From IMG/VR virus record IMGVR_UViG_3300006802_000087, positions 1 to 64,000 of that record: DNA of 64,000 nt; one strand, written 5' to 3'. Both the position numbers and the translations under genes were made by a program. The stretch is from a virus. Below the pieces are notes generated by a model, which made no database searches, was not told the DNA's origin, and worked only from the letters and a program-made list of their open reading frames with translations. Of the stretch, positions 9,924 through 49,675 are shown one piece after another. Position 1 is the first letter of the stretch. Every line of letters begins with the position of its first letter.

Positions 9924-10495
9924 AAATTAAGCTTTGTCCAGAAGATAAGAAGCAGCTGTTAGACATTGCAGAAAGCCGCAGAGTGCATTTAGAGGGAAAC
10001 ATTGTTAAGTTAATTGACCCTGAAGACGACAATGATTTTAAAGTATATCTGCAAACATGTCAAGAAAAAGACACAGATAACAGAAAGAAAAGATTGGAAA
10101 TAACGCGCCAAGTTCAAGATCAGAATAAAGAATTAGAAGAAAAGGCAAAAGAAAATGACACTTTAATGATTGATCTTAAAGAAGCACTTAAAGAAGCAGA
10201 AGGAGCAAAAGAAGCTGCTGTTAACGATCTAGACTTGATGCAGAAGAAGACTCAGTTTGAATTAATTGGTAATATAGTTAATGTGGCACTTTGGATAATT
10301 GTTGGAGTTGGTATCATGACAACTATTTTATATATGACTGCGCTATTTACAAAGGGATCTGGCGCTGATACAACACTTATTGGCAATACCTGGTCGAATT
10401 TGCTCGGTATACTACTAACAAACTCTTTTAGTATTATAGGCACCATTATGGGTGTCAAGTACGCTAGTGAAAATAGCAAGAAGGAAGAAAAGTGA
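9920..10495 (+). CDS. Coiled-coil protein with two C-terminal TM helices
   Basis: ATGA overlap with the response regulator; heptad region then two hydrophobic helices. Confidence 0.7.
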   Translation: MKIKLCPEDKKQLLDIAESRRVHLEGNIVKLIDPEDDNDFKVYLQTCQEKDTDNRKKRLEITRQVQDQNKELEEKAKENDTLMIDLKEALKEAEGAKEAAVNDLDLMQKKTQFELIGNIVNVALWIIVGVGIMTTILYMTALFTKGSGADTTLIGNTWSNLLGILLTNSFSIIGTIMGVKYASENSKKEEK

Positions 10496-12207
10496 AAATT
10501 ACAAAAAGACAATTATCACTATTAATTGAACAGTATCTTTTAAATGAAGCTGTACATGACAAGGTTGCAGCACAATTACGTATCACAGATCCAGACAAGA
10601 TAGAGCAGCTAAGAATTGCTTCTGAAATACCACACCGGCTTCAGAAACCTGAGCTTATATGGATAGGTAATTACTTTATATCCCCTGCAGGTATACAGTC
10701 AAAAGAGAAAATAGAGGATATTATTGCTTCAATAAAGTCTCTAAAGCAAAATAGAGCAGCGATTGAAAGAAAGGGCGGTTCTGCTAATCTAGAAGACTAT
10801 TCAACTCCAAGAGAAATTGATGTTGCTGTTGCATCGGCACGAGGTTATGCACATGAAACTCAATTAAATGATCAAGCAAACATAGCATATGAAGATAACA
10901 ACTGGATTCTTTGGGTGCCTCACACAAGAGAAGCTTCCTGCACCATCGGACGCGGAACTAATTGGTGCACATCAATCCCAGGAGCAGGTAATAATCTTTT
11001 TTATAATTATGTAATTGGAGAACGCGCAATACTTTTCTACCTGGTTAAGAAAAATCCGACAGAAGGTGACAGTCCAGAGACGACTCATTTTTCTTTAGGT
11101 ACTGTCGGCGGGAAAATACCTTTTGCTAAAAAAGAAGGTGAAGGTGGAGGTAGTATCGTCGTCGACGGGGCCAATCATGGCTTAACTAGGCAAAGATTTG
11201 AGTCTTTGGTAGGCCAGGATTTAGCAGATCATTTAATAAGTTTGATAGAAAATTATGCTAATAAAGGTTATCAGCACCCAAGTTCATCAAAAATATTTGA
11301 GATGCTAAGAAATCCCGCGTTATATGTCGTTGAGATGCGAGGTAAATCTGTTGATGTAAAGTTTGACTTAACAGCAGTTTTATTAAATACTTATAAAAGA
11401 GCTTTATTTGATTCTGGAAGTGAACTAACAACAGAAGATCGTGAAGCAGTTATAAAAGTCTTTACTGACACGAATGATCCTTTTCATCAAGCTATAGTTA
11501 ATTCAACAGAAATAAAACAAAAAGATATTGACGACTATAAAGATGCTATTGTACAAAAAAATGTCTTAGAGTCACAAAAATTTAGTAAAGTCATTTATGA
11601 TGGTGATCAGATCTTAGATGATACTAGCGAAGTTAAAAATCGTACAGGTAATAATAGTGTCAATACAGAATTCTGCAAAAGATTAACAGAATTAAAAAGC
11701 CAATCACTATCCGCAATATTTAAAAAAGTAGAAGATTTATCAGACGAAACAGCCAATTTATGGGATCATACTGCTATGTCAGACCTAGGTGATGGATATG
11801 TCGGGTATGCCGGAGATCTTGAAATAACAGACGTTCTTAAATATGTGTTAGAGAATGAGACAGTGGAGATACAGAACTTAGACGATAGCGTTGCAGGTGC
11901 CCTTATTGAAATATTGTTAGCATACCATGCTGATTTATTGTTTCTTCGAGGATACGGATTGATTAAAGATCCGTACTATAATGAAGGAGGATGGCATACT
12001 AATGATCATGATGCAGATGTTCAGACAATTGAAGAATTTATGAATACTGATAGGGAAAAAATGATGTGGGTCGACAGCAGTCATTGGGGATATTATCCCG
12101 GGCAGTTTTTTACAGAAGGCGAAATTAGGAGTTATTTGAGTAATAATTATAGTCAGGATGTTATTGCATACCTCAACGCGAATGTTCTAGAATTTGCACC
12201 TGCGTAA
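10492..12207 (+). CDS. Tagged virion-associated protein with GxGTxWCT domain
   Basis: MKITKRQLSLLIEQYLLNE leader; REASCTIGRGTNWCT. Confidence 0.75.
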   Translation: MKITKRQLSLLIEQYLLNEAVHDKVAAQLRITDPDKIEQLRIASEIPHRLQKPELIWIGNYFISPAGIQSKEKIEDIIASIKSLKQNRAAIERKGGSANLEDYSTPREIDVAVASARGYAHETQLNDQANIAYEDNNWILWVPHTREASCTIGRGTNWCTSIPGAGNNLFYNYVIGERAILFYLVKKNPTEGDSPETTHFSLGTVGGKIPFAKKEGEGGGSIVVDGANHGLTRQRFESLVGQDLADHLISLIENYANKGYQHPSSSKIFEMLRNPALYVVEMRGKSVDVKFDLTAVLLNTYKRALFDSGSELTTEDREAVIKVFTDTNDPFHQAIVNSTEIKQKDIDDYKDAIVQKNVLESQKFSKVIYDGDQILDDTSEVKNRTGNNSVNTEFCKRLTELKSQSLSAIFKKVEDLSDETANLWDHTAMSDLGDGYVGYAGDLEITDVLKYVLENETVEIQNLDDSVAGALIEILLAYHADLLFLRGYGLIKDPYYNEGGWHTNDHDADVQTIEEFMNTDREKMMWVDSSHWGYYPGQFFTEGEIRSYLSNNYSQDVIAYLNANVLEFAPA

Positions 12208-12218
12208 TAGGAAGATAA

Positions 12219-13946
12219 ATGAGAATAACAAAAAGACAACTAAACTTACTAATCGAACAATACCTTTTAAACGAAGCAGTGCATGATAAAGTTGCTAACC
12301 AACTAGGTATAACAGATCCTGAAAGAATAGAGCAATTGAGAATTGCTTCTGAAAAACCACACAGTTTGCAAAAGCCTGAATTGTTATGGATAGGCAAGTA
12401 TTTTACTACCTCTGAAGGTATGCAAACAAAAGAGCCGATAGAAGATATTGTGGGATCAATTAAGTCTCTAAAACAAAATAAGTCAGCTTTGATAAGGAGG
12501 GGAAGTGCCACTAATTTATCAGATTACGAATCACCAGGTCAGATTAATATTGCTGTTTCCTTATCCCGTGGATTTGTAGATATCAGTCAACTAAGTGAAC
12601 AGGTCGACGTTCTATATGAAGATGAAGATTGGACACTTTATATGCCACACTCAAGGGAAGCTTCCTGCACTATTGGGAGAGGTACCTCATGGTGCACTGC
12701 AATACCGGGGCCTGGTAATAATCTTTTTTATAACTACGTAATCGGCGGACGAGCGATACTTTACTACTTAGTCAAGAAGAAAAAAGAAGAAAATGAAGGC
12801 CCAGCAACAACTCATTTTTCACTAGGTACAATAGGGGGAATAATTCCATTTCCGAAAGAAGGGGAAGGGAGCGGTCACATTGTTGTTGATGGTAGCAATA
12901 TCGGTCTATCCAAGGCAAGATTCTTAAGTTCTGTAGGAGAGCAACTAGGCAATCAGCTGATATCAGTAATAGAGCAACATTCAAAGCAAAACAGGAACAA
13001 TCATCCAGCAAAAAACAAAGTAATGGAGATGTTAAAAAATCCTGCTTTGTATGGGGTAGAAATAAGAGGCAAGTCTATAGATGCAAGATACGATTTTACT
13101 GGAATGTTAACTAGTACGTACAGAAACATGATGGAATCGAATAAAGTAACAAAAGAGGAAGATAATTTAATAGCTGATGTATTTACTAATCCGGATAATG
13201 ATTTTCATAAATTAATTGCTGCTGCAACTGAAATCAAACAAAAAGATATCAATGCCTATGAAACAGCTGTAAAATCAAAAGATACAGCACAGATGCAAAA
13301 ATACGGCAAAATATTTGCAGACGGTGCAACTATTAAAGAAGCTGAGTATGCAATTAGAAGCATAGCCGAAGACCCGTCTTTAGATGAATCAGGAACGAGT
13401 GGTTATAGATTCTGTAAGAATTTAGATAAATTATCCGGATCGATTCCTTACTATTATTATCAAATGGTTGAAAGAATGGCAAATGACACAGCAATTGCAT
13501 GGCAGTCCAAGACACCTGATGAGGATTATGTAATAGAGACTGATTTAGAAGTTACGCCTAGTATCAGATATTATATTGAAGAGGATCCGTCTATTAATGG
13601 TATAGAAAGCATGTTAAATAAATATTTTGATGAATTTATAGAAATGCTAGGGGTTTATCACGCAAATATACTAATAGGCCAAGGATACTGTGTTGTTCAT
13701 GATCCGGAAGAACATAATAATACAGGTCAGTTACATCACGAAAACGCTGGACTGCCGGTTGCATATATCGAAGACTTTATAGAAGCAACAAGTGATGATG
13801 ATTATGCGTTGTGGTGGACCAATGATCAATACCCAGAATATCGATATGAACCCTTTACAAGTAGTGAAATACAAAACTATATGCGAGGTAACTTTTCTCT
13901 AGAGTTTGTTGATTGGTGCTCCATGCGTGGATTTACTTTTACATAG
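12219..13946 (+). CDS. Tandem paralog of 10492..12207
   Basis: MRITKRQLNLLIEQYLLNEAVHDKVA; REASCTIGRGTSWCT. Confidence 0.78.
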   Translation: MRITKRQLNLLIEQYLLNEAVHDKVANQLGITDPERIEQLRIASEKPHSLQKPELLWIGKYFTTSEGMQTKEPIEDIVGSIKSLKQNKSALIRRGSATNLSDYESPGQINIAVSLSRGFVDISQLSEQVDVLYEDEDWTLYMPHSREASCTIGRGTSWCTAIPGPGNNLFYNYVIGGRAILYYLVKKKKEENEGPATTHFSLGTIGGIIPFPKEGEGSGHIVVDGSNIGLSKARFLSSVGEQLGNQLISVIEQHSKQNRNNHPAKNKVMEMLKNPALYGVEIRGKSIDARYDFTGMLTSTYRNMMESNKVTKEEDNLIADVFTNPDNDFHKLIAAATEIKQKDINAYETAVKSKDTAQMQKYGKIFADGATIKEAEYAIRSIAEDPSLDESGTSGYRFCKNLDKLSGSIPYYYYQMVERMANDTAIAWQSKTPDEDYVIETDLEVTPSIRYYIEEDPSINGIESMLNKYFDEFIEMLGVYHANILIGQGYCVVHDPEEHNNTGQLHHENAGLPVAYIEDFIEATSDDDYALWWTNDQYPEYRYEPFTSSEIQNYMRGNFSLEFVDWCSMRGFTFT

Positions 13947-14392: not shown

Positions 14393-14446
14393 TTTTTTTG
14401 ATTTTTCATCATGATCTGTATAATTATAGATAAAAATGAGGTCATA

Positions 14447-15289
14447 ATGAAAATAACAAGAAGTCAATTAAGACGATTAATAGAAGGAATGATCGGATAT
14501 CCGGACAAGCCTCCTGTAAATGCAAAAAAACACCTGTCGAGCGACCAGTTTGGCCCTAAGTTAGGCGGCATGCTAAGATCAGATGACCCTGCTTTTCGTA
14601 ATCAAGGTATTAATTTAGGTGCAATCCTAGGTGATGACGTACTAGATGTTTTAGACAACATGCCAACATCTCAAATCGACTCTTTTATTGACAGTGGTGA
14701 AGGTTCCTTGGACAAAAAAGAAGCGCTATTTCAGTCAGTTTTAGAAAATGCAGAATCATTGTCACCATGGAGAGGCAAACAAGTCTCTTCATATTTAGTA
14801 ATAGGATATGGAGATGAGTTTGACTTATTAATTGACGGTGATATTCTCACAGACATTTATGAAACTATAGCTGATGGTCGAGATGCTGAGGCTAAACAAA
14901 TTGCATACGACTATTTAAATACAGAATTTTTAAATTCAAATCAAAAAATTGCAAATTGGTATAATAGTAATGTTGCCAGTGATCAAAATTTTCAAGGTTA
15001 CTCTTCTTTTGCAGACTTTTACTTTAATCAAAAATTTGACGATATTCACATTTATGGAATATTACCATATGAATTTGATGTAGCTGGGTGGAATCGATAT
15101 ACTGCAGATAAAACTTTTAGAATTTATAAGAAAGGATTACCAAGTATTACTCGTTCAACCGGTCCTGAAACTCGTAGACAAGTATATATACTTGCTAAAG
15201 CATTTGGTTTCCCATCACAAGGATTTGGTAGCCACCCCGTTGATTTTTATTTTTATGATCAGGAAAAAGGCGAAATTGTGATTGGATGA
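14447..15289 (+). CDS. Tagged hypothetical (probable virion) protein
   Basis: MKITRSQLRRLIE after GAGG RBS. Confidence 0.75.
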   Translation: MKITRSQLRRLIEGMIGYPDKPPVNAKKHLSSDQFGPKLGGMLRSDDPAFRNQGINLGAILGDDVLDVLDNMPTSQIDSFIDSGEGSLDKKEALFQSVLENAESLSPWRGKQVSSYLVIGYGDEFDLLIDGDILTDIYETIADGRDAEAKQIAYDYLNTEFLNSNQKIANWYNSNVASDQNFQGYSSFADFYFNQKFDDIHIYGILPYEFDVAGWNRYTADKTFRIYKKGLPSITRSTGPETRRQVYILAKAFGFPSQGFGSHPVDFYFYDQEKGEIVIG

Positions 15290-15390: not shown

Positions 15391-15834
15391 ATGAAACTTA
15401 CAAAAAGAAAACTTAGAAAAATATTACTCAAGGAAATGGACCTCATGGGAATGGGAATTGACATGGGACAAGTAATGCAAGCTGTACAAGGATTACTTGC
15501 AGCTGGATTATCTTTGGGTGCTGTTATGGTAGCACTCTTATCAATGTTGGGACCGGTCATGTTTAATGGATTTATTGATGGTTATTACAGAGGCTTATTT
15601 TCAGAAAATGAATTTAAGCGATTTGTAGAATTGCAAAAAACTGATCCTGAAGCAGCAAAGAGATATGCCGATCGTATTATTACTACGAAAGGATATAGTG
15701 CACCATCTGAATCAGAATATGGTCAGCCTGTTCATCTAGCAACAGGTGAAGTCGATGCTAGACATGCACGTGACTATACTGCACAGCATGGTGATATCGA
15801 TTTTGACCCATATGACGATGATCTAGATTATTAA
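15391..15834 (+). CDS. Tagged protein with hydrophobic segment
   Basis: MKLTKRKLRKILLKE; LLAAGLSLGAVMVALLSML. Confidence 0.7.
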   Translation: MKLTKRKLRKILLKEMDLMGMGIDMGQVMQAVQGLLAAGLSLGAVMVALLSMLGPVMFNGFIDGYYRGLFSENEFKRFVELQKTDPEAAKRYADRIITTKGYSAPSESEYGQPVHLATGEVDARHARDYTAQHGDIDFDPYDDDLDY

Positions 15835-16469: not shown

Positions 16470-16886
16470 ATGGCACTAAATCATCAAGTACTTCGTGGGT
16501 TAGGTTATGTTCCTTCATATCAAGCATCTGCTGTACCTTTTTTGACTAGCTCTTTAACAATCCCCGTATCAACATCTGAACCGATTGTGATTAATTTTAA
16601 TACTGTCACAAGATTTATTACAGTTACGAATACAAACGCTATTGATGATCCAAATTATCCATTGCGTTTTGGATTTTCTAGAAATGGTATCAAAGGTGTA
16701 GAAAACAATAATTATATTGTTTTAAACAATGGCGACTCATTTGAAGGAGCGTTTAAAGTTACTAGTATTTTTTTATTAAGTGACTCTTCTGTTTATTCAT
16801 CGTCGGGTTCTATAGTTGCAGGATTGACTGATATACAGTCTTCACATTTAAGCCACAATTGGTCAGGTTCAATAGGGGTGGGATAA
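16470..16886 (+). CDS. Putative virion protein, paralog of 3964..4302
   Basis: GLGYVPSYQASAVPF; C-terminal AGLTDI. Confidence 0.6.
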   Translation: MALNHQVLRGLGYVPSYQASAVPFLTSSLTIPVSTSEPIVINFNTVTRFITVTNTNAIDDPNYPLRFGFSRNGIKGVENNNYIVLNNGDSFEGAFKVTSIFLLSDSSVYSSSGSIVAGLTDIQSSHLSHNWSGSIGVG

Positions 16887-16887: not shown

Positions 16888-18423
16888 ATGGGATTTACTA
16901 ACTTACATGGAAAACAAGGAAAATCAACAAATAATCCTACAATTGGTTTTGGTGGCGTAGAAGTAAGTCAGCTGGTGCCGGTTGCACAAGGAGACTTCAT
17001 ATACGGAATACAGACGCCTCAAACTTTTGTAACTGCATCTTTTGTAGGCTCTTCTGTTACAGCTGCAAATGGCATGGCAGTATTAAATTGTGGCACTGAT
17101 GTATCCGGCTCTGCGGTATTAAATTTAAGAAGAGGTATCAAATATAGGCCCGGCCAGGGTTCAATTATGAGAGCTACAGCTCTTTTTGATACACCGGTAG
17201 AAGATAATCTGCAATTGATCGGTCTAGCAAACAACGAAACCGGTTACTCATTTGGTTATCAAGGAACAGACTTTGGGATACTCCACAGAGAAACAGGTCA
17301 GCTAGAAATAAGAAAGCTAACCATAACTGCCGGTGCAACAAATGGGGAGACAGTTACGGTTACTTTAGACGGTGACGCATTTACTTTTGATATTGATATT
17401 GAAGGGACTACTTCAACTACACAAACAGCTTATAAGTTGTCTTTGGAAGATTATACTCAGCTAGGAGAGACGGGATTTCTGGTTGATGTTGTGGGTGCTG
17501 ATGTGTATTTTATTTCTGGTAGGTGTAATCCTGATTTGACTGGAACGTATTCTATTTCAGGAACCGGTACCATCGCCGGAACTTTTACACGTGTATTAGC
17601 AGGTGCTAATCATGAAGAAACGTTTATTCCGACTGGTTCTTTTAATATTGATAAACTAGACGGTACCGGTCCGTCAGGGATGATCATAAATCCTCAAAGA
17701 GGAAATGTATATGAAATTGACTTTCAGTATCTCGGTTTTGGCAACGCAAGATTCGCCGTTGAAGATCCCAATACAGGAAGATTTACTAATTGTCATATGA
17801 TTAAAAACGCAAATAATCGTATAACTCCGGTCCTTAAAAATCCTAATGTTCAAATTAGATTAGAATCTTCAAATAGCGGAAACACTAGTGATGTGTCAGT
17901 CAAGTCTGCATCTATGTCAGGTTTTATTTCTGGAGAGATAATAAAATTAGATCCAAAATTTGCTCAAAGTTTTGCTTTTACGAATCTTAATAAATTAACC
18001 TATCACCCGCTAGCAATGATTAAAACAAATAGAATTCATAAAAATCAATCTTGTTTTGGAGAGTTTGATATATTAAGGTTGGCAGGTTCAAATGAAGTAA
18101 GTTCGAAAACTTTAATTATTGGATTCTTTTTGGGTGCAGAAATAACAGGAAATGTTAACTACCAATTTGTTAACGATGAAAATAGTATTGTTTCAATAGC
18201 AACTTTAGACCCAACAACAAACTCACCTCCGAATACAATTAGTAATTTAAGTGATATTGTTCCTTTCCATGAAATTGTTGTAGGTCCTTTGGCGGGTGTA
18301 TCTGAAGATTTGGACAAACTTGAATTTATATTTCCTCCTGGTGTTCCGCTTTTAATTGCTGTTAAAGCTACAAATACTGGTGTTAATGGCTCAGTTTCTA
18401 TTAACTGGTTTGAACAGCAATAA
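16888..18423 (+). CDS. Putative structural protein (beta-rich)
   Basis: 511 aa; KYRPGQG, FNIDKLDGTGPSG, IDFQYLGFG. Confidence 0.6.
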   Translation: MGFTNLHGKQGKSTNNPTIGFGGVEVSQLVPVAQGDFIYGIQTPQTFVTASFVGSSVTAANGMAVLNCGTDVSGSAVLNLRRGIKYRPGQGSIMRATALFDTPVEDNLQLIGLANNETGYSFGYQGTDFGILHRETGQLEIRKLTITAGATNGETVTVTLDGDAFTFDIDIEGTTSTTQTAYKLSLEDYTQLGETGFLVDVVGADVYFISGRCNPDLTGTYSISGTGTIAGTFTRVLAGANHEETFIPTGSFNIDKLDGTGPSGMIINPQRGNVYEIDFQYLGFGNARFAVEDPNTGRFTNCHMIKNANNRITPVLKNPNVQIRLESSNSGNTSDVSVKSASMSGFISGEIIKLDPKFAQSFAFTNLNKLTYHPLAMIKTNRIHKNQSCFGEFDILRLAGSNEVSSKTLIIGFFLGAEITGNVNYQFVNDENSIVSIATLDPTTNSPPNTISNLSDIVPFHEIVVGPLAGVSEDLDKLEFIFPPGVPLLIAVKATNTGVNGSVSINWFEQQ

Positions 18424-18430: not shown

Positions 18431-18805
18431 ATGATGATGCGTCGAAAAAGAAAAAAGAAAAAGTTATGGAGTAAACAGTCTCTTTACGAAAGAAAAGACG
18501 GAAGTAAAGTTCTCATGGACAGCACGTGGGAAGTTGCAATGGCTAAAAGGTTAGATCATCTTAAAATAGTGTGGGAAAGACGAGAAGATATGAAGCTACC
18601 CTATCTGTCAAAGACAGGACGAAAAAGAAACTATATTCCTGATTTTTACCTACCTGATCATGATATATATATTGAGGTGAAAGGTTACTGGACAGATGCT
18701 GCAAGGTATAAAATGAACGCTGTTCAAGATGCAAACCTAGTAAAAATTGTTATACTGGAATCATTAGAAGCAGTTAACAAATTTACAAGATGGAAGTTAA
18801 AATGA
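18431..18805 (+). CDS. PD-(D/E)xK (TnsA-N-like) endonuclease
   Basis: DSTWE...YIPDFYLPDHDIYIEVKG. Confidence 0.82.
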   Translation: MMMRRKRKKKKLWSKQSLYERKDGSKVLMDSTWEVAMAKRLDHLKIVWERREDMKLPYLSKTGRKRNYIPDFYLPDHDIYIEVKGYWTDAARYKMNAVQDANLVKIVILESLEAVNKFTRWKLK

Positions 18806-19521
18806 AAATAACAAGAAGACAATTAAGACGATTAATAAACGAAGTCCGAATAAAACCAAGCATTCCTAATATACCTAGTGATGATGCCTTAGGTAAGGTT
18901 GATGACTTGGCGCGACAGGAAGAATTTCAACCTAGCGCTGATTCTTTAGCAGGTGCTTTTGGATATCCTGAAGATCGTAGTTATTCGGCCGATTTAAAAG
19001 GTTACGATAATCTTGAAGCAGAGATGGGTCGATATAAAATTGAAAAATATCTACCCGGATTCCTTAATTTACCCGAGGATGTAATTGAAGTAGTAGCGGA
19101 ATTTGTGTTCTTGTCTGAAGTTCCCGTATTACATATACAACTTGATGAAGACATGGTTGAGCATGAATTAGGTGAAGACACTTATCATAGAGGCACACAC
19201 TTTCAAGAAGTGCAAAAGCCGGAAAATGCTGAAATAGTCGCGATGACTAATGATTTTCGCGAGAACCCTAAAGCTCATGATGTTAAGTTTTATTATATCT
19301 ATGCAGCTCATGGCTCTTACAATGGATCAGATCCGTTTGCAAGAATAGACCCGCATGGAATGGGCGACGCTCAAACAGGTTTTCATGATGGTTTCAGAGA
19401 AGAATATCAAAAAGTTACTACAAACCGCGCGCATAGAATTTCAAGTTTAGCAGTAGAGGAATCGTTTATTGAAATGATGAGAGCCTTGAGGCCTGATCAC
19501 GAAGAAGAAGTAATTAATTGA
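18802..19521 (+). CDS. Tagged hypothetical protein
   Basis: MKITRRQLRRLINE. Confidence 0.75.
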   Translation: MKITRRQLRRLINEVRIKPSIPNIPSDDALGKVDDLARQEEFQPSADSLAGAFGYPEDRSYSADLKGYDNLEAEMGRYKIEKYLPGFLNLPEDVIEVVAEFVFLSEVPVLHIQLDEDMVEHELGEDTYHRGTHFQEVQKPENAEIVAMTNDFRENPKAHDVKFYYIYAAHGSYNGSDPFARIDPHGMGDAQTGFHDGFREEYQKVTTNRAHRISSLAVEESFIEMMRALRPDHEEEVIN

Positions 19522-19528: not shown

Positions 19529-20965
19529 ATGAAAATAACAAGAAGACAATTAAGAAGATTAATAAATGAAACAATGTTACAGCCAACTTTCTTTTTAAAT
19601 ATGAAAGCGCGCCAAGAGTTTCTACCTAAGATCGTAGCAGATCCGAATGTACACCCAAAGATTAAGGATCTGCTAAAGAGTGGAGAAGAATCACAGACCA
19701 ATCAAGGTGTAGAACTTTTGAAGTCTTTGAATCCCGAGTACATAGAAGAATTAGAATCTTATGAGTCACACCAAGATTCAATAGAATACGATAGAGAATT
19801 TGAAGACCAACGAGACAATCTGTTTTTTACCCGCATAAAGAGTATCGTTGACAAATATAAGTATGACATGGGCATTCCACTTAAGTCGGATATTTTAACG
19901 GTTGAAAACATATCCAAAGATACAGCAGCAGGTAGTTATACTGATCGTTCCAGTGGGCGTCGTGCAAAAAGGTTTACGCACAAAAGACTTCACGGTGCAG
20001 CAATTTATGCTACTGACAAAGCGACGCTTGAGCGAATAGCGCGAGAGCTAGACTCAGAAAAAGACATGGGTGGAGAACAGGCATACCATGGTGTTGGCGG
20101 AGCAGGCCAACCTCTACTTCCTTACATAAACGATTATTATCTGACAGCACTTGATTCAAATCTTAAATATAAAAATGAAATGCACAAGAAGGGAAAGTAT
20201 GAGTTAAAAGTTTTTCCAGCTACTCCTGATCAAAGAATATATAAGCAACCGACACATCGCAAACTAAATGTGAGTATGTATGAGACGAAAATAAAAAGAA
20301 GACAATTAAGAAAATTAATATCAGAGTTTTTACATGAGAACACAAACACACAAAGATATCAAAACACTCCGTTAAGATCAAGAACTGTAGATAGTTTAAT
20401 TAAAGACATTGAAATCGCTAAAAAAGAGTTTGGTAAAGTTAAGAAGCAAGATGGAAAGCATAGTTTATTTGACCTGGCTATGACAATGTTAGTTACAAGT
20501 GACACTTCTTATAGTAAAGGCGGCGGTGAAGGAAAAATGATAATAAATTTTGGTACCAGCTCAAGTACTCCAAGAAAAGTAGTAGCTCAGTTAGTTAAAT
20601 ATCAAGATAAAAATGGAAAAGAGTTCGAATCAATTGGCGTAAGGGATTTTAAATCAAACAAAGACTATGAGTTAGTCGACTTAAATAAATCTGGCCCTTA
20701 TATAGATATACTGTTTGGTATTGACGGTTTACAAACAGTTTTTAAAGATAAAGGTAGATATACTAAAGTTTATAATCATCTATACAAAGAGTTTGAAAGA
20801 AACAATATTGAACCAAAACAGTTTGAAACGCCTGGTGAAAAATTTAGAAGAGAAAAAGAAGCAAATTTTGTTAAAGACAAGGATTATTATCTAGGTAAAA
20901 ATCCCCATAAAAGACCGTGGTATTTAAAAACAGGAATTCCGGATGGTGTGACAGACCTGTTTTGA
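19529..20965 (+). CDS. Tagged protein with a second internal tag
   Basis: MKITRRQLRRLINE and internal KIKRRQLRKLISEFLHE. Confidence 0.75.
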   Translation: MKITRRQLRRLINETMLQPTFFLNMKARQEFLPKIVADPNVHPKIKDLLKSGEESQTNQGVELLKSLNPEYIEELESYESHQDSIEYDREFEDQRDNLFFTRIKSIVDKYKYDMGIPLKSDILTVENISKDTAAGSYTDRSSGRRAKRFTHKRLHGAAIYATDKATLERIARELDSEKDMGGEQAYHGVGGAGQPLLPYINDYYLTALDSNLKYKNEMHKKGKYELKVFPATPDQRIYKQPTHRKLNVSMYETKIKRRQLRKLISEFLHENTNTQRYQNTPLRSRTVDSLIKDIEIAKKEFGKVKKQDGKHSLFDLAMTMLVTSDTSYSKGGGEGKMIINFGTSSSTPRKVVAQLVKYQDKNGKEFESIGVRDFKSNKDYELVDLNKSGPYIDILFGIDGLQTVFKDKGRYTKVYNHLYKEFERNNIEPKQFETPGEKFRREKEANFVKDKDYYLGKNPHKRPWYLKTGIPDGVTDLF

Positions 20966-21006: not shown

Positions 21007-21438
21007 ATGAAAATAACAAGAAAACAATTAAAAAAATTAATATCAGAGGCATATCAGCCCCCTATGGGCAGATCAGTTAGCGGAATTGCAAAGATTGACA
21101 TGCAACCAGGTAGAGGATATGTTATTGAAGATAAACATGGAAATATTACAGAAACTGATAATCCTGTTATGATCTTAAATGAGCTTATGAGTCAAGGACA
21201 TGATAGAGTATACGATAAAATGACAGAAGAGGTTGAAGATATTGAGACATATATCGAACAACTTGAAATGTTTATGGGAGACTTTGTAGAATATAGAGAT
21301 ACGGATGTCGATCCTTTGCTTGCTCATGACCCGCTAGATATTATGTCAAGAGACTTTGACAAAGATTATGATGTTGACTTGGATGTTTTCGATGAAGAGA
21401 GTGAAGAAGAATCTAGTTTTGACGATGATTGGATATAA
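21007..21438 (+). CDS. Tagged acidic protein
   Basis: MKITRKQLKKLISE. Confidence 0.75.
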   Translation: MKITRKQLKKLISEAYQPPMGRSVSGIAKIDMQPGRGYVIEDKHGNITETDNPVMILNELMSQGHDRVYDKMTEEVEDIETYIEQLEMFMGDFVEYRDTDVDPLLAHDPLDIMSRDFDKDYDVDLDVFDEESEEESSFDDDWI

Positions 21439-21450: not shown

Positions 21451-21936
21451 ATGAAAATAACAAGACGACAATTAAAAAAAATATTAATGAGAGAGTTTAG
21501 AGACACAGGATCGTATCGTAACTTTGACTTTGGATCATCATCAGGCGGAGGACAAATACCTCCTACACAACCGCCTAACGGCGGCGGTGGCGGAGGTGAT
21601 GACGGTGGAGGCTTCGGAGGTTTCAGCGGAAGAAATAACAATCCTTGTGGGTTTGGAAGCCCAAAAGGTGATTACTATTACGATTTAGTATTTAATACTT
21701 TTGGTTCGTGGATGTCATCTAATATGAAGACTAATCCAAATGATAATGAATACGATAACTACTTAAGTCATTTAAAGCGGATATATCCAGAATTCACAAT
21801 GGATATGGTTTCTAATGAGTATAATGAATTTTTTGAATTAATCATGACAGCAATTGCTGAATATGCATGTGCAAATAATATTGAAGATGTTGAATCAATA
21901 TACTTTAATCCTATCCCTGCAATATTAGATTTTTAA
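21451..21936 (+). CDS. Tagged protein with Gly/Pro-rich linker
   Basis: MKITRRQLKKILMRE; PPNGGGGGGDDGGG. Confidence 0.72.
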   Translation: MKITRRQLKKILMREFRDTGSYRNFDFGSSSGGGQIPPTQPPNGGGGGGDDGGGFGGFSGRNNNPCGFGSPKGDYYYDLVFNTFGSWMSSNMKTNPNDNEYDNYLSHLKRIYPEFTMDMVSNEYNEFFELIMTAIAEYACANNIEDVESIYFNPIPAILDF

Positions 21937-21993: not shown

Positions 21994-22413
21994 ATGACCA
22001 GTGCGGCAGGGATAATAATTATTAGAAACGTTAATAATCACCCAGAATTCTTAGGATTAATAGCATTAAAAAAAGATAGAAAAAGAGTTGGTGGGACATA
22101 TGATATTCCGAAAGGCCATGTTGAATCAGGAGAAGATCTTTTAGAAGCAGCTAAAAGAGAATGTTTTGAAGAGTGTGGTTTAAACCCAAAAATTATTAGT
22201 GAACCATATTCAAATGGAAAAATAACTGTGTGGCTAGGAATAGTTGATGAAGAAGATGAAGTTATAATAAAAACAAATCCTGGAACAGGATTGCTAGAAC
22301 ATGAAGGTTATGTGTGGTTAATACCAGAAGATATGAGACGTAACTGTTTAAGTTATTTACTAGATCATATCCGATGGGCTGAAAAAAGAGCATGGGAATA
22401 TTTTAAATTATGA
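21994..22413 (+). CDS. NUDIX hydrolase
   Basis: Nudix box PKGHVESGEDLLEAAKRECFEECGL. Confidence 0.92.
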   Translation: MTSAAGIIIIRNVNNHPEFLGLIALKKDRKRVGGTYDIPKGHVESGEDLLEAAKRECFEECGLNPKIISEPYSNGKITVWLGIVDEEDEVIIKTNPGTGLLEHEGYVWLIPEDMRRNCLSYLLDHIRWAEKRAWEYFKL

Positions 22414-22784
22414 AAATTACTAGAAGGCAATTAAGAAAGATAATAAGCGAAAACTTTAAAGGAAGCAAATTTACTGATGAAATAGGTCGATATTTTAGTG
22501 TTGAAAAAGCTGTGTCATTCGCAGAAAAAAATAAAGATAAATATTTTATTCCTAATTTTCCAGTAGAGAATATTAAGCATGATTTAAAATACTGGCAAGG
22601 CGATGAAAAAAGAATGATGAATGCTGACACTAGTTTTCCTTTATTAGTAATTATAGAAAATGGATGTCTAAGCGTAGCAGATGGCTTAAACAGGCTTTAT
22701 AAAGCAGTCAACGTGGAAGAAAAAGAAACCATAGATGTGTACATTGTACCTAAAGAAGAACTGTTGGAGTTTGAAATAGAATGA
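22410..22784 (+). CDS. Tagged ParB/Srx-like domain protein
   Basis: MKITRRQLRKIISE; ADTSFPLLV...VADGLNRLYKA. Confidence 0.65.
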   Translation: MKITRRQLRKIISENFKGSKFTDEIGRYFSVEKAVSFAEKNKDKYFIPNFPVENIKHDLKYWQGDEKRMMNADTSFPLLVIIENGCLSVADGLNRLYKAVNVEEKETIDVYIVPKEELLEFEIE

Positions 22785-25609: not shown

Positions 25610-27241
25610 ATGAAAGATTATGATATGTTTTTTCCCTACGTTAAACCTAGAAAAGAACAGCGAGATGCAATTGAGTTCGCAATCAAAGCAATTAAAGATA
25701 GTGACAAACGATTTGTGATTGTTGAAGCCGGTACAGGAGTAGGTAAGTCAGCTATTGGATTAACACTTTCTCGTTACCTAGCAAATAATATTCCTGATAG
25801 TGAAGGCTATGATCAAGGTGGTTATTTTTTAACAACACAAAAAATTCTGCAAAAACAATATGAGAAAGACTTTGGTGGAAGTAAAGGTGAGATGAAATCA
25901 ATATACTCATCTTCAAACTACAAATGTAAGTTTTATCCTCAAAACGATTGTAGAACTACGCATGAAATGATGCGATCGCTAGATGCATCAAAAAATAAAG
26001 CGTTATTCAAGTGTTGTGGCGGTGGTTGCACCTATAAAATTGCAAAGAAAAACTTTCTCGAGTCAAAGGAATCAGTAACAAATTTTCCATATTTTTTGAC
26101 AGAAGCAACTTTTAGTGGTGGAATTACTCCTAGAAAAGTTTTGGTTATCGATGAGGCTCATAATACAGAATCAGTCCTAAGTAGTTTTGTTGAAGTATCT
26201 GTAAGTCAATACTTTGCTGAAAGAGTTGTCAAGTGTAAATGGCCTGATAAAGTAACATCAGTAAACTTTGTTAAGTGGATAGAGAACGTATATCATCCTA
26301 AATTACAATCACAAATTATGTTCTTTGAGAAACAGATTGAAGATCTTGGGATTAAAGATAAAATTAAAGATATGGCAAATATTTCTAAAAAATATGATAT
26401 GATGAAAAGTCATTCAGATAAGTTAGATAAGTTTTTAAAAGACTACGATAAAGATAACTGGGTTATGGAGAAACAAGAAACAGAAAAGCGAGGCTCTATA
26501 AAGGTTGTTTATAGAGCAATTGATATATCAAACTATGCTGAAGAGTACTTGTTTAGACTCGGGCAAAAAATTGTTTTGATGTCTGCTACGATTTTAAATG
26601 CCGATGCATTCGCAACTTCGCTAGGTATTCCAAAAGACCAGTATGAATCAATCAGCATTCCTTCACCTTTCCCAAAAGAAAACCGTCCTATTATTAATGC
26701 ATCAGTAGGAAGCATGAGTGCAAAAGCTATTGAAGGTACGCTCCCTCAACTTAAAGAAGCAGTTAAAGCAATCATGGAAGAACACGGAAAAGAAAAAGGA
26801 ATTATTCATTGTCACACTTATCGAATTGCAAATTATCTAAAAAAGAACATTAAAGGAAAGTTAGGAAAGAGAATTCTTATACACGATAGTAGTAACAGAG
26901 ATAACATTCTTAAAAAACATATGACTTCAAAAGAGCCGACTGTATTGTTATCGCCGTCCATGACAGAGGGCGTAGATCTCAAGGGCGACTTAAGTCGTTT
27001 CCAGGTTATTTGCAAAGTTCCTTATCCTTGGTTAGGTGATCCAATTGTGAAAAAACGTATGCATAAGTTTCCTGATTGGTACCCGCTTAAGACTGCCATG
27101 ACTATAGTCCAATCAGTAGGTAGAAGTATTAGAAACAGCGAAGACACAGCTGTGACTTATATACTTGATAGTGACTGGCAAAACTTCTATAACAAAAACA
27201 AAAGATTATTCTGCGAAGATTTTAAAAGATTGATTGTATAA
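25610..27241 (+). CDS. DinG/XPD-family SF2 helicase
   Basis: EAGTGVGKS, Cys cluster, DEAH, MSAT, EGVD, QSVGRSIR. Confidence 0.92.
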   Translation: MKDYDMFFPYVKPRKEQRDAIEFAIKAIKDSDKRFVIVEAGTGVGKSAIGLTLSRYLANNIPDSEGYDQGGYFLTTQKILQKQYEKDFGGSKGEMKSIYSSSNYKCKFYPQNDCRTTHEMMRSLDASKNKALFKCCGGGCTYKIAKKNFLESKESVTNFPYFLTEATFSGGITPRKVLVIDEAHNTESVLSSFVEVSVSQYFAERVVKCKWPDKVTSVNFVKWIENVYHPKLQSQIMFFEKQIEDLGIKDKIKDMANISKKYDMMKSHSDKLDKFLKDYDKDNWVMEKQETEKRGSIKVVYRAIDISNYAEEYLFRLGQKIVLMSATILNADAFATSLGIPKDQYESISIPSPFPKENRPIINASVGSMSAKAIEGTLPQLKEAVKAIMEEHGKEKGIIHCHTYRIANYLKKNIKGKLGKRILIHDSSNRDNILKKHMTSKEPTVLLSPSMTEGVDLKGDLSRFQVICKVPYPWLGDPIVKKRMHKFPDWYPLKTAMTIVQSVGRSIRNSEDTAVTYILDSDWQNFYNKNKRLFCEDFKRLIV

Positions 27242-27265
27242 TTATATCTTATTAAGGAAGTTACA

Positions 27266-30645: not shown

Positions 30646-32681
30646 TGAGAAAAGTGAAAATAACAGAATCAAAAATAAGAAAGTTAATCAGTAACTTGCT
30701 AAATGAGTCTATTAGCGATGATGAGATTAATCAACGTATAATTGGTATTAAGGCACAGGGGTTAGCTAAAAACCCAGCTTTTGAAGCACTTCATAATTTA
30801 ACAAAGGAACTGGTATCAGATCAACAGATGAAAAATTTGATTGATGCATCTGTCTCTGTTAAATCACATACTGGAGAAGTCCCAGTATGGAACAGTCATG
30901 GTTTTGATCATAGTGACTATTGGAAATTTGTTGTTAATGTTGACCCGGCAAACAGAAGCAGCTCGGGAGGTGGATTGGCTGGAAGCTATACATATCCTAA
31001 AATTACTGAAAATTTCCGCACAGACCAAAAGCCTTTAAATTATATCTTAGAAGATATGAGGAATAGTACTTTAACACCACCAACTAGCTATTCTGGCGCG
31101 TCTATAACAATAGCAGACCAGGATATACTAACTTTCTTAGAAGACACTTCATATGTAAAATCTGTTGCTGACGGACATGAAGCTTTTGCTGCACTATTAT
31201 TTGCAAAATACCTAGACAAGAATTTCACCGTTACTCCTTCCACACAAAAAGGAATGGATTGTATTTCTGATGACGGAACCATTTCTATCGAAGTAAAAGG
31301 TTCTCAGAAGCCAGAACCTCAAACAAATTTCTCTGGTTCACTTCCCAAGTATTCAACTAATCATTTCTATTTATTCTTAGCTACAGACAGAAGTTATATA
31401 GTTAGATCTGACCTGTTAAGAAGATTTTATATGCTCTCTCAATTTAATGAAGAAGATCAAGAAGAGTCTTTTTATAGAAGATTAGTAGGAGATGGATCTT
31501 TGGCAGCCCCAGACTCATTTCCTAGACTAGGTACACTAAGAGACTTTATGATAACTGCTTCCCCAAGTGATGAAGCTTTTGACGCCATTAAAACACAAAG
31601 CTATAGCGAATTTAATGAGGCAATCAACGATCCGAACACACCGCAAGAAATTAAAGTGTTATATTATAAAATGTTGTCAGAAGTAGAAAGTCAAACTGAA
31701 ACATTGGCAGCAACTTTAATCCAGTCATTGTTTGGGTTTGAGGGAACAGAAAGAATTAATCCTCCCGATCTTAGTTTTCTAGGATTGCAAGTCTATTTAA
31801 GACCAGTGTTGAAAGGCGTAAAAAGCCAGCAAGATCCTTCTATTCCTGCTTTGACAACGGGCCTAGGCGATGGTGAAGAAAGAAGTCAAGTCTATACGCA
31901 AGGAGGAACTCTTCACCCTAATTATGTGACTTATATAAGAAGTCAAGTCAATAGTTTAGTAGAGAGAATAAAAAGCAAGTACAACTATTCTAGTGTCAAC
32001 AGAAGCTTTAAGATAAAAATACTTGCATACATTGTTACGTCAGTAAGAGAAAAAATTAATCAACTTGCCCAACAAGTTTATGCTGATATAATAGCAACAT
32101 ATGATAGTAACAATGTAACTGCAGATGTACTTAGGTCACTAAAAGATGAAGCCTTAGAGAAAAATAGCGAATATAAAGATTCTGTAGCTGCACACAAAGC
32201 TGATAAAGCCGCAAGAGAAGCAGCAATAAATGCATTGGCAGCCAGCCTATCCAATTGGTCAACAATGACTAAAGTAGCAAAAAATAAAGCAATCAAAGAT
32301 GCAGATATTAAGAAAAGTTATCCTATTCGTAAAAAGAAAAAACGTCCAACTAGCGGATATCGTTTAATTTTAATGTTACGAGATGCCGAAAAGACAGGGA
32401 CACCAATTTCAGGAACAGAATTTGGTGAAGCATTTGTAGAATCAATTACTGCTGAAATTGAACGACTCAAGGAAGAATTAACTGCTAGCATAGCTGAAGA
32501 AGCTAGTAATCTAGAGTCGACACCGATGTCGACTAGACTTTTTGAAGAAAAGGACACAAACTTATATCAATCCATACTTTCAGACCTGCAAGAAGCCTCT
32601 CGTCAGCAGCGCAGAAAACAACTCTCTAACTTAGACGAACAAAAACTGCGCGAACTCATAAGACAGACAATGCGAAAATAA
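30645..32681 (+). CDS. Large doubly tagged protein with possible PD-(D/E)xK nuclease domain
   Basis: KITESKIRKLISNLLNE; GMDCISDDGTISIEVKGS; ends LDEQKLRELIRQTMRK. Confidence 0.65.
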   Translation: MRKVKITESKIRKLISNLLNESISDDEINQRIIGIKAQGLAKNPAFEALHNLTKELVSDQQMKNLIDASVSVKSHTGEVPVWNSHGFDHSDYWKFVVNVDPANRSSSGGGLAGSYTYPKITENFRTDQKPLNYILEDMRNSTLTPPTSYSGASITIADQDILTFLEDTSYVKSVADGHEAFAALLFAKYLDKNFTVTPSTQKGMDCISDDGTISIEVKGSQKPEPQTNFSGSLPKYSTNHFYLFLATDRSYIVRSDLLRRFYMLSQFNEEDQEESFYRRLVGDGSLAAPDSFPRLGTLRDFMITASPSDEAFDAIKTQSYSEFNEAINDPNTPQEIKVLYYKMLSEVESQTETLAATLIQSLFGFEGTERINPPDLSFLGLQVYLRPVLKGVKSQQDPSIPALTTGLGDGEERSQVYTQGGTLHPNYVTYIRSQVNSLVERIKSKYNYSSVNRSFKIKILAYIVTSVREKINQLAQQVYADIIATYDSNNVTADVLRSLKDEALEKNSEYKDSVAAHKADKAAREAAINALAASLSNWSTMTKVAKNKAIKDADIKKSYPIRKKKKRPTSGYRLILMLRDAEKTGTPISGTEFGEAFVESITAEIERLKEELTASIAEEASNLESTPMSTRLFEEKDTNLYQSILSDLQEASRQQRRKQLSNLDEQKLRELIRQTMRK

Positions 32682-38301: not shown

Positions 38302-38347
38302 GAATTTATATTTTCTTAAAGATATATAATTATACGACAGAGGCTCT

Positions 38348-38863
38348 ATGAGAATATCTAGGAAAAATCTTAAAAATTTAATTGAAACATATCTTTACGA
38401 GCAGGAAGAAGACGCTGAAGAGTTGGAGGCTGATGCTGAAGTTGAAGAAGAACCGGAAGAGTCCGAAGACACTGAAGAAACTGATGCTGAAGAAACTGAT
38501 GCTGAAGTTGAAGAAGAACCGGAAGAAGAATTCAAGCCTGTCAAAGGGATACAAATTGAAATTGATGGTAGAGTTCGAACTATAGATTTTATCTTAGATA
38601 AAGGGTCGAAAGAATTAAACTATAAAGTTGACGGTCAGACTGTACCGAACAAAGACATGTCTTCTTTTGTATCTTTAGCTGCTCTAGGATTAATGCAAAC
38701 TAAAGATAAAAATAAACAAGACAATCTTTTAAAAATAATGAAGTTAAATAAAGAATTTAGTTCAGCATCTATTGAAAGAGCAAAGCAGATGATTAAACAA
38801 AAATTAGATACAGAAAGGCTAGGTTTTGGAATTAAAGATATTAAAAAAGCATTAGGCGACTAA
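38348..38863 (+). CDS. Tagged protein with acidic repeat
   Basis: MRISRKNLKNLIETYLYE; DAEVEEEPEE twice. Confidence 0.72.
   Translation: MRISRKNLKNLIETYLYEQEEDAEELEADAEVEEEPEESEDTEETDAEETDAEVEEEPEEEFKPVKGIQIEIDGRVRTIDFILDKGSKELNYKVDGQTVPNKDMSSFVSLAALGLMQTKDKNKQDNLLKIMKLNKEFSSASIERAKQMIKQKLDTERLGFGIKDIKKALGD
38430..38526 (+). repeat. 31-bp intragenic direct repeat
   Basis: ctgatgctgaagttgaagaagaaccggaaga at 38430 and 38496. Confidence 0.85.
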
Positions 38864-45393: not shown

Positions 45394-45397
45394 TTAT

Positions 45398-45743: not shown

Positions 45744-45774
45744 TTTTAAACAAACGAGTAACAAGAGAAAACAA

Positions 45775-46056: not shown

Positions 46057-46064
46057 TGTTATTT

Positions 46065-46137
46065 GGGCACTTGGCGCAGCGGTTAGCGCAGGGAACTCAT
46101 AATTCTTTGGTCGTAGGTTCAAATCCTACAGTGCCCA
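46065..46137 (+). tRNA. tRNA with CAU anticodon, probably Ile2 (lysidine, reads AUA)
   Basis: GGGCACT/AGTGCCC acceptor; CTCATAAT..TTGGTCG body resembles ileX. Confidence 0.85.
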
Positions 46138-46245
46138 CTTTACTATCAATGCTCTGGGTTAGGTTAAAACTGCCGGTCGGATTAGGGCATTGATATAAAA
46201 CTCCTTGGTTAATCCGACCGGCACCCTTTTTAATTGGAGATAAAA

Positions 46246-47706: not shown

Positions 47707-48094
47707 ATGAAATTAATGTTAATTCCATTCGCATTTCTTTTAGCTTGTTCGGGCAAAACGTCAGAATCAGTTAATACTCAGAATGCAAAAACAGAGACAA
47801 CAGAAACAACAGAAACGAAATCAGATGAAAAATCAAGTGAGGCAACGTCTGATCAAAGTACTTCTGACAATACAGAAGAAAAAACACAAACGGTTGAAGA
47901 AACCAAGGAAGAGACTAATGACTAGTTTGCTTATGACATTATTTTTAGCTTGCGGCGATAAAGAAGAAGAACAGGATACAGCAGTTGAAGAGGTTGAAGA
48001 TACTGAAACAACTGAAAATACTGAAGCAGAAGATACATCAGAGTCGTCTGACCCTGTAGAAGAAGAAGACACAGCAACAGAAACAGCTGAATAA
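47707..48094 (+). CDS. Two small acidic lipoproteins (47707..47925, 47918..48094)
   Basis: FLLAC and LFLAC lipoboxes followed by E/T/D-rich tails. Confidence 0.7.
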
Positions 48095-48985
48095 TATAAA
48101 AGCTGTTGATTAATTAACAATACAAAACTAGGAATATATTATGGCTGAAATTATCGACATACGTGAGGCAATTAAAGCAAGACAAAATGAAAGATTAGAG
48201 AAAGTTAAATCAGATCTAGATCATGAAATTGACTTATTGGATCTTTCAATTGACGAAATATTAACTAGTTTTGTATTTCCGTTTGTTTTACCTTCACTAT
48301 ATGAAAACAATTCTGAAAAAGATTTGGAGTTTGAAAATGATTATTGCGTATTTCTACTTAATCAAATATCAAACTCTTTTAAAGATAAAGATATTCAAAA
48401 TGACATCAAAAATTTAATCAACAAAATCAATTTAAAAGGAATAGAAAAATGACACACGGTCTTAAAGATAGAGTTGTCCTTAAAGAACAGGACATTAAAA
48501 GAGCAGGGTTTAAAGTAAAAGGAACAATTGTTAAGCTTTATAAAGGAAAGAGAGGTTCTATTAAAACTTGCGGTGTTTTATGGGACAATGAATGGCCTGT
48601 TACAAACAGCAAGGTAAAGAATGATCGATATACATCGGGTAAGGTTTTTTATTATAAACCTGAAGACCTAGATATTGTTGACACTTGGAGTTTGGACTAA
48701 TGTCAAATCGCTGGGACGATGATAAGATCATTGACATTACTCCTAGGGTAAATAAAAATGGCAATTCTTTGCATCAGGATGATATACCTATTGAGATAAA
48801 TAGACGTATTTCTGAAAGAATTCAGAGAGAACATAGAGAAAAGACAAGAAAACTATATGTCGACTCTATGTTGACAATCTTATTCTCGCTCCAGCTTATA
48901 ATAGTTTTGGTAATATTTTTATTTTTACTTTAATTATTAAGTTTTCGAATGATAATTATAATGAACAGCAAGGATGGTTGTAATT

Positions 48986-49675
48986 ATGAGATTATCTCGA
49001 AAACAATTAAGAGAAGCTATTTCTCTTCAAATGAAAAATCATATTTTTGAGACATCAAAAGATCGGATTGATATTGACAAAGACACAAAAATAGATGACG
49101 CAGCGCCTGGCAGATCAATAAGCGATTTAGGTCTACCATCAATTGACATAGAAGATTCTGATGATAGAGATGAAATTGAAGGTATGATGTTTGATGATGA
49201 AGAAATGTCGCATACAGAGTCTGAAACAGATTGGAATCCTATGTCAAGCATTAAATTTCCAGTTCCGGGAGACAGACCTTCATTCCACGATCCTAGAGGT
49301 AGAACACCAGATCAAATTAGAGCGGATGTACACGGTATAGCTGATGAGTTAGAAAGCAGAATTCCTAAGAAGCCAGGCAAGTCTAAGAACCAAAAAGAAG
49401 GAGAGTTTATTGAAGAGCTGGAAAAGCTTTTAGGTAAGACAGGCCCACTCGGCCCTGACGACTTTCATACTGATCCTGAGTTTGGACCTTTAACACCTCC
49501 ATTCGACACGGGTTTGCCTGATATACCAGCGCCATCAATGGAAGACACAGTTGAGTTAGATCCGGATCGATTTAGAAAAGGACTACCGAATGACAATGAT
49601 CCTACCAAGCCTTTAGACGAGGCAATTCGCAGAGTTATCAGAAGAGAAATTCGCAAAAGACTTCAAAGAATGTAA
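48986..49675 (+). CDS. Doubly tagged acidic/Pro-rich protein
   Basis: MRLSRKQLREAI...IFE; ends LDEAIRRVIRREIRKRLQRM. Confidence 0.72.
   Translation: MRLSRKQLREAISLQMKNHIFETSKDRIDIDKDTKIDDAAPGRSISDLGLPSIDIEDSDDRDEIEGMMFDDEEMSHTESETDWNPMSSIKFPVPGDRPSFHDPRGRTPDQIRADVHGIADELESRIPKKPGKSKNQKEGEFIEELEKLLGKTGPLGPDDFHTDPEFGPLTPPFDTGLPDIPAPSMEDTVELDPDRFRKGLPNDNDPTKPLDEAIRRVIRREIRKRLQRM

Follow-up and report, generated by a model that had tools for sequence, protein, structure and literature searches.

Why do a dozen proteins encoded in one stretch of viral DNA, most of them unrelated in the rest of their sequence, begin with the same short peptide? The stretch in question (the window) is the first 64 kb (64,000 nucleotides) of a 75.8-kb viral contig, IMG/VR record IMGVR_UViG_3300006802_000087, with a CheckV completeness of 37%; where it must be told apart from other contigs it is called G000. 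In translation, 12 open reading frames (ORFs) of the window start with the form M(K/R)(I/L)(T/S)(K/R)xQLxx(L/I)I..E, hereafter the tag. They score 14.9-29.5 bits against a hidden Markov model (HMM) of it, values that are circular because these same ORFs built the HMM. An earlier note on this DNA had counted about 13 tagged proteins and had proposed a capsid-targeting and cleavage signal. Twelve of them stand; the gene at 30645 has only a diverged variant, and the ORF at 34295, which gives no match to the tag HMM, was dropped as a tagged ORF. The tag is real, sits at protein starts, is portable over hundreds of unrelated bodies and is under selection as a peptide. Judged from its sequence and company, it is best read as a variant of the T4 capsid-targeting sequence (CTS) that differs in sequence and is used on a much larger scale, and we lean towards the view that M-K-I-T-(K/R)-R-Q-L-(R/K)-x-(I/L)-I-x-E is a prohead-targeting propeptide clipped by a Peptidase_S77 protease.

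A six-frame regular-expression search over the whole 75.8-kb contig gave 15 matches, and all 15 fall at the start of plus-strand ORFs. Scanning the contig and its relatives with the tag HMM, as the earlier note had suggested, added four tagged ORFs on the same contig past the window (73606, 74224, 74833 and 75555) and found 441 in the IMG/VR loci. Relatives were fetched from IMG/VR with a degenerate DNA pattern for residues 1-12, which returned at least 119 stretches. HMM, cluster and logo counts for IMG/VR cover the 119 loci listed (~1 Mb), with thresholds of at least 12 bits for a tagged ORF (n = 441) and at least 10 bits for an HMM match (n = 469). ATG or GTG stands at the start of 460 of the 469 matches (98%), and a motif like a ribosome-binding site lies upstream of 70% of tagged ORFs vs 15% of random positions. 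The sole internal copy on the contig, a weak one (13.6 bits), is at 20285 within the ORF that starts at 19529. Tag-bearing contigs reach 367 kb and often hold many clustered copies. A collection of 5.8 billion proteins contains hundreds more tagged proteins, many from Tara or other marine data. The GTDB prokaryote genomes gave only 19 stretches, nearly all on contigs of metagenome-assembled genomes that resemble mis-binned phage, such as one of 306 kb with at least 18 tag copies. A string search of the literature found the motif in no paper.

The claim that the tag is fused to mostly unrelated bodies was borne out. On the contig, only 10492/12219 and 74224/74833 are pairs of paralogues, and the tag-stripped bodies from IMG/VR form 302 BLAST clusters with a median length of ~110 aa. 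No window body falls into a Pfam family, and almost none into a PHROG family; Pfam and PHROGs searches with tagged proteins and tag-only peptides gave no family, apart from weak N-terminal matches to phrog_7338 and phrog_8171. A PDB sequence search with three large bodies found nothing, and an ESM Atlas search returned viral hypothetical proteins only. Could the peptide then be just the conserved N-terminus of a single fast-evolving paralogous family, and no portable tag? Most bodies lack a detectable family, so extreme divergence is possible for many of them, and the genes stand in tandem arrays, in which 244 of 321 neighbouring tagged pairs are directly adjacent (320 are on the same strand). 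A single family would, however, have to span lengths of 30-575 aa and a sharp drop of conservation past residue 16. It would also have to include a ParB-like fold and the unrelated Pfam domains found in about 6 of 149 body representatives (YkuD, LysM, AAA_33, HNH, tRNA-ligase CPD and EF-hand). We regard this explanation as hardly credible.

The logo was built from 403 unique tags, in which residues 1-4, 7, 8 and 12 are fixed by the fetching pattern (at least one copy per locus), and E14 and E/A/S15 lie outside that pattern. The consensus is M K I T K R Q L R (R/Q) I I K E E. E14 is found in 93% of the tags and [LI]-x-E14 in 91%, in agreement with the hydrophobic-x-E ending that had been claimed. 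Within the window, the tags end in LIE at residue 13 or LI(N/S)E at residue 14 (LIE, LINE, LISE), often with a later second motif at 18-19 (LLNE, MLNE, FLFE or YLYE); over all tags, a second [LI]xE falls at residues 17-27 in 52%, most frequently at 22. Past residue 16 the information content drops abruptly, and the downstream segment, in which G, D, E, P, A and S abound, is linker-like. The family of the 10492 protein (35 members, 23-91% overall identity) keeps the tag, which 33 homologues share, and its E19, in LLxE|A, is invariant. In an AlphaFold2 (AF2) model of the 10492 ORF (mean predicted local distance difference test score, pLDDT, 82.8), residues 5-19 form a helix that breaks at residue 20; as modelled, the tag is a basic amphipathic helix. 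The model has no fold match in the PDB, and its BFVD matches of low template-modelling score, among them a PA5oct 'structural protein' and PcfJ-like proteins, were too weak and were not used. A Tat or Sec signal peptide was rejected: there is no hydrophobic h-region, and positions 13-30 hold charged or polar residues (K, E, E and then a stretch rich in G, D, E and P).

DNA identity among the copies is 32% upstream, 62% in the tag and 30% over codons 25-40, and conservation begins precisely at the ATG. All synonymous codons are present at the conserved residues, which argues for selection on the peptide, and residues are replaced by similar ones (K/R, I/L/V, T/S). A plain DNA repeat was rejected, as unrelated DNA lies upstream of the copies and the choice among synonymous codons varies. 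A subtler alternative is that conservation acts mainly on the nucleic acid, in a translation-initiation region or a recombination cassette that moves from gene to gene, with the peptide as a by-product. Tag codons are indeed skewed towards A-ending forms (ACA 75% vs 39%, AGA 79% vs 39%, GAA 87% vs 67%) and third-position identity is about equal to first-position identity, so some nucleotide-level constraint or copying is possible; a modular cassette idea has been reported for T4-type phages (PMC2839356). A-rich codons are common near starts anyway, however, and the free use of synonyms, the conservative replacements and the sharp onset at the ATG next to unrelated upstream DNA all speak for the peptide. 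The nucleic-acid explanation is therefore very improbable in our view.

If the peptide is what matters, the phages that carry it should say something about its role. From their genes, the carriers are T4-like jumbo phages that form an uncultured marine lineage. Peptidase_S77, the family of the T4 gp21 prohead protease, was found in 22 of 33 tag-bearing contigs, among them every contig with an estimated completeness of at least 71%; the 33 comprise 5 large carriers (242-367 kb), all with S77, and 28 further contigs, 17 with S77. A Gp23-type capsid protein was found in all five large carriers tested. One of the relatives, G002 (288 kb, 96% complete), encodes both the S77 protease and a Gp23-type capsid protein and shares 18 genes with G000, including a sigma factor (44% identity), a helicase (51%) and GroEL. 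The receiver protein of G000 is 91% identical to that of another S77-positive phage (G017, a 237-kb contig, locus L061); the closest contig found to G000 has no head genes. Tag numbers vary in the lineage: of the 365 genes called in G002, ~29 are tagged, and their arrays occupy 52-60, 88-90 and 105-109 kb, with the head module at 171-183 kb; the complete 367-kb genome G001 carries just one or two. When six capsid proteins of tag-bearing genomes are aligned with T4 gp23, the sequences opposite its cut site FLTE|A are VLRE|S/A, LLRE|A and LIHE|A, and by homology we infer that the L/I-x-E specificity of the protease is conserved in this lineage. In four genomes a conserved ~140-aa protein encoded two genes past the protease has a tag-like start, MAK(I/V/M)(S/K/T)RxxLKxL(I/V)KE.

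Avoidance of [LI]xE is expected in bodies that have to survive a protease with that motif. We counted motifs per cluster in bodies from residue 27 on, with bootstrap confidence intervals (CI) and with untagged genes of the same loci as controls. The observed/expected ratio of [LI]xE is 0.96 (CI 0.86-1.07) in tagged bodies vs 1.21 (1.17-1.26) in untagged proteins. That of [LI]xD is shifted the opposite way (1.29 vs 1.13), and the contrast is confined to offset +2; Asp at the T4 cut position blocks processing. The bodies are also distinctive in composition. Cysteine is absent from 85% of body clusters vs 35% of controls, in each length bin, and transmembrane-like segments occur in 1.8% vs 11.8%. 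T4 IPII, IPIII, gp67, gp68, gp21 and gp22 likewise have no Cys. The bodies are enriched in A, D, E, G, P and Q.

How close is the likeness to T4? In T-even phages, internal proteins that are otherwise unrelated have an N-terminal leader in common; it sends them into the head and is removed by the gp21 prohead protease (PMC9026906, PMC3012670, PMC12373910), which cuts after L/I-X-E (PMC9026906). T4 has three such tagged proteins, Ip1-3, which are injected inhibitors of host type IV restriction (PMC12373910). T4 IPII and IPIII start with MKTYQEFIAE|A, and gp22, gp24, gp67, gp68, Alt and gp21 have comparable short starts ending in (L/I)xE. Like the T4 CTS, the tag is short, stands at the very N-terminus of unrelated proteins and ends in (L/I)-x-E; the five large carriers have T4-type head genes (S77 protease and Gp23), the bodies are nearly Cys-free, and the genes lie in variable arrays apart from the core head genes. 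Unlike the 10-residue MKTYQEFIAE of T4, the tag has 14-16 residues, is strongly basic (MKITKRQLRRIIKE), shows no detectable homology to the T4 peptide and is frequently followed by a second L-x-E ~8 residues on. It is found on up to ~29 genes per genome and on more than 300 body families, as against 3 genes in T4 and ~10 reported for the T-evens, and the bodies behind it are mostly acidic. Direct homology to the T4 CTS was rejected, since there is no HMM score and the two have in common only the M-K start and the hydrophobic-hydrophobic-x-E end.

Other systems offer looser parallels. Encapsulin cargo-loading peptides and the encapsulation peptides of bacterial microcompartments are short portable amphipathic helices that bring unrelated cargo into a protein shell; these are, however, cellular compartments, the peptide is not known to be clipped, and in encapsulins it is usually C-terminal. 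In the giant phiKZ-like phages SPN3US and 201phi2-1, head and ejection proteins with propeptides are reported to be processed by the prohead protease of the phage (PMC5694885, PMC7411985). Here too, many internal proteins enter a jumbo prohead and are trimmed after Glu. The propeptides of phiKZ-like phages are long, are not known to share a short tag and have a different cleavage motif, and the lineage is a different one, not known for a T4 gp23/gp21-type head.

In the mechanism that we favour, the basic amphipathic N-terminal helix would dock the new protein onto the acidic scaffolding core during prohead assembly. The gp21-type protease (Peptidase_S77) would then cut after the Glu of I-x-E at residue 13-14, and/or at the second (L/I)-x-E at ~18-22, which may be the cleavage site used (in the window it is followed by A, V or T). 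The cut would free the body within the head. The body would then enter the next host together with the DNA; some acidic members would instead be broken down or leave the head, as T4 core proteins do. Each step of this scheme, from docking and cleavage to residence in the virion and injection, is one that we infer. It is possible, though we hold it only tentatively, that this abundant marine T4-like jumbo lineage pre-packages and injects a very large, fast-turnover set of proteins, ~30 per genome and hundreds of unrelated families in all.

Expression of the tagged genes can be approached through their promoters. Thirty-eight promoters on the contig follow the pattern TGTAA-N15-18-TATAAT (class A); they are early-like and lie before small genes, tRNAs and the transfer-messenger RNA (tmRNA). 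None of the 38 directly precedes a tagged gene; the tag is thus not equally common on early genes, an outcome that the earlier note had named as contrary to its proposal. A second class (class B) consists of seven elements [TG]ATAATT[AG]TA (TATAATTATA) without a -35 box. Four of the seven lie 13-19 nt before tagged genes; of the others, one stands at the head of the operon whose last genes are 10492 and 12219, one lies before the weak 34295 ORF and one before an untagged gene. The late promoter of T4 is TATAAATA, and by analogy the TATAATTATA class may be late. An enrichment analysis of 8-mers upstream of G002 genes recovered ribosome-binding sites only.

The proposal of a capsid-targeting and cleavage signal is thus upheld in part. 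It fits the S77-bearing lineage, the L/I-x-E end, the L-x-E site of the capsid proteins, the depletion of [LI]xE, the Cys-free soluble bodies and the separate promoter class. The undetectable homology to the T4 tag and the mostly acidic bodies do not fit it so well, and a number of observations weigh against it. Genes for Peptidase_S77 and Gp23 are absent from the 37%-complete 75.8-kb contig itself, and in G002 the tagged arrays are 60-120 kb away from the head module. T4 IPII, IPIII, gp22 and gp24 give no score against the tag HMM, and the ~140-aa head-module protein scores just 2-5 bits, so its likeness to the tag is suggestive at most. The residue after E14 is mostly Glu, which none of the compared T4 sites has there. 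The depletion of [LI]xE is moderate, and acidic controls alone reach only 1.14. The median isoelectric point (pI) of the bodies is 4.7; T4 IPII and IPIII are basic. Among the tagged genes, 22410 lies downstream of an early-like class A promoter at 21945, the doubtful 30645 gene is in a unit behind an early-like promoter, and the late nature of the TATAATTATA class is argued from T4 only. The codon skew described above belongs to this side as well. A cultured carrier was not found by tblastn with one tagged protein and the 30-aa tag, a search whose sensitivity is limited by the short motif.

Because most bodies are acidic, unlike IPII and IPIII, some tagged proteins may be expendable core and not injected. 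Taken further, this becomes an explanation in which prohead targeting and clipping are true, but most tagged proteins are expendable core or scaffold accessories, like T4 gp67, gp68 and gp22, that would be broken down or leave the head ahead of DNA packaging and so would not reach the host. The bodies are small (median ~110 aa) and mostly acidic like T4 gp67 and gp22 (pI 4.1 and 4.6), some of them extremely so (e.g., the 38348 ORF), and a core-like gene of the head module has a tag-like start. T4 scaffold is, however, rich in [LI]xE (16 in the 269 aa of gp22), and the tagged bodies are depleted in it, as survivors of the protease should be; 302 unrelated families with YkuD, LysM, HNH, AAA_33 and ParB-like domains also suit cargo better. 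We therefore consider this explanation unlikely. The distance between tagged arrays and head genes in G002 bears on another proposal, namely that the tag is a docking helix for a non-capsid partner, such as the GroEL of the phage, a hub protein of the host, DNA, or a protease adaptor that would recognise an N-terminal degron, and that the I-x-E ending is merely part of the amphipathic helix. A basic amphipathic helix is a generic shape for binding proteins or nucleic acids, and the contig does carry a GroEL homologue. This proposal leaves unexplained the offset-specific depletion of [LI]xE with enrichment of [LI]xD, the near absence of Cys, the restriction to S77 phages and the exclusion from early-like promoters, and it too seems to us improbable. 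Clipping of a prohead-targeting propeptide remains the reading that we prefer; the individual genes are described below.

The tagged genes, the class B elements and the genes 16470..16886 and 16888..18423 are on the plus strand. The first two tagged genes are the paralogues at 10492..12207 (571 aa, GTG start, tag MKITKRQLSLLIEQYLLNE, 20.3 bits) and 12219..13946 (575 aa, 23.8 bits). They close a unit (7430-13946) that is headed by a class B element without a -35 box at 7394..7403 (TATAATTATA). The first part of this unit, 7430-10495, encodes two HATPase_c histidine kinases, a stand-alone receiver domain and a 191-aa partner, and continues straight into the two tagged genes. Between this and the following tagged cluster lies a tmRNA gene (14005-14392, +; Rfam RF00023, 103 bits; ARAGORN tag peptide ANNNAHFDSVAVAA) with a class A promoter at 13967.

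A second class B element (14419..14428) heads the main cluster of tagged and structural genes, 14447-21936. Its tagged members are 14447..15289 (280 aa, immediately 3' of the TATAATTATA element, 25.8 bits), 15391..15834 (147 aa, a weaker tag MKLTKRKLRKILLKE on a hydrophobic body, 14.9 bits), 18802..19521 (239 aa, 26.8 bits), 19529..20965 (478 aa, 24.6 bits), 21007..21438 (143 aa, 28.1 bits) and 21451..21936 (161 aa, 21.6 bits), the last with a tag that lacks the [LI]xE ending (ILMRE). The internal copy in the 19529 ORF (TKIKRRQLRKLISE, residue 253) suggests that this ORF may have arisen when two tagged genes fused; a cut by the protease at the 20285 copy, if it occurs, would give two products.

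The same cluster encloses two untagged genes, one for a virion structural protein and one a paralogue of a head-module gene. The structural protein (16888..18423) matches phrog_1645, head and packaging, with an E value of 6.8e-26, and its tblastn matches are annotated as virion structural in T4-like cyanophages; this 511-aa protein has no homologue among the five large carriers. The other gene, 16470..16886, is a homologue of the post-protease gene in related head modules (E 5e-16). It and 3964-4302 are paralogues of the small gene directly after the prohead protease in related jumbo phages (E ~1e-15), and this family has no PHROG or Pfam entry. PHROGs likewise gave no match for the accessory genes of the head modules of relatives. 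In G002 (locus L160), the minus-strand gene at 173942-175672, just upstream of the capsid gene, encodes a 576-aa protein, a candidate scaffold by position only. It starts with MGSNIYQEAIAE|A, which resembles both the MKTYQEFIAE|A of the T4 CTS and the start of T4 gp22, and it also contains an internal TPRIRRLIEAE.

The remaining tagged genes of the window are more scattered. The ORF at 22410..22784 (124 aa, 29.5 bits) has a ParB-like body (phrog_17560). A class B element at 27237..27246 precedes 27266..28108 (280 aa, 20.8 bits), and another at 38325..38334 precedes 38348..38863 (171 aa, a very acidic body, 22.8 bits); both genes start immediately 3' of the TATAATTATA element. The element at 48951..48960 has one mismatch and precedes 48986..49675 (229 aa, 18.5 bits), which stands behind GATAATTATA. 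The doubtful gene at 30645..32681 (678 aa) begins with the diverged variant MRKV-KITESKIRKLISNLLNE, to which the HMM gives no match; its tag is offset, and a candidate GTG start at 30654 would restore the register.

Past the window, a separate conserved element, TTTCCGGAGAAATTT...TAGATAATTAT, lies upstream of 73606, 74224 and 75555; 74833 does not have it. Over 73150-75555 it reads AAAATTTC(T)CCGG(A/G)(G/A)AAATTT...TTTTAGATA(A/G)TTAT and is present before these three genes and the untagged gene at 73212; within it is a palindrome similar to TTCCGGAA, and an activator may bind there.

The rest of the contig provides some context. Its left end encodes a GroEL (Cpn60) homologue (1-1374) and a sigma-70 factor (2305-3338) with a truncated region 4 match, followed by a separate 90-aa ORF. 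Genes for tRNA-Leu, tRNA-Arg and two tRNA-Met are located at 45310-46138. Class A promoters are distributed over 1735-63328 and on to 70390; they have an unusual -35-like ATGTAA(C), and at 49-70 kb there is about one per small gene. The G+C content (GC) is ~34% and rises to 40-45% over 54000-64000 and on to 75823, and the gene at 63390-64142 is a paralogue of 44116-44871. The region 54000-75823 could be mosaic or an assembly chimera of two related phages.

What would the answer to the opening question mean? Together with a matching protease, the tag may provide a protein-packaging handle for capsid engineering. If the tag works as in T4, the head-loading system of T4 would seem to have been re-coded and greatly expanded in its jumbo relatives, and hundreds of uncharacterised protein families of ocean phages would be labelled as capsid cargo, which would open a sequence-only route to candidate injected effectors of uncultured viruses. 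If, in addition, the reading of these proteins as an injected arsenal is true, one 14-residue tag would turn a large block of viral dark matter into a catalogue of candidate effectors for first-strike takeover of the host and for anti-defence.

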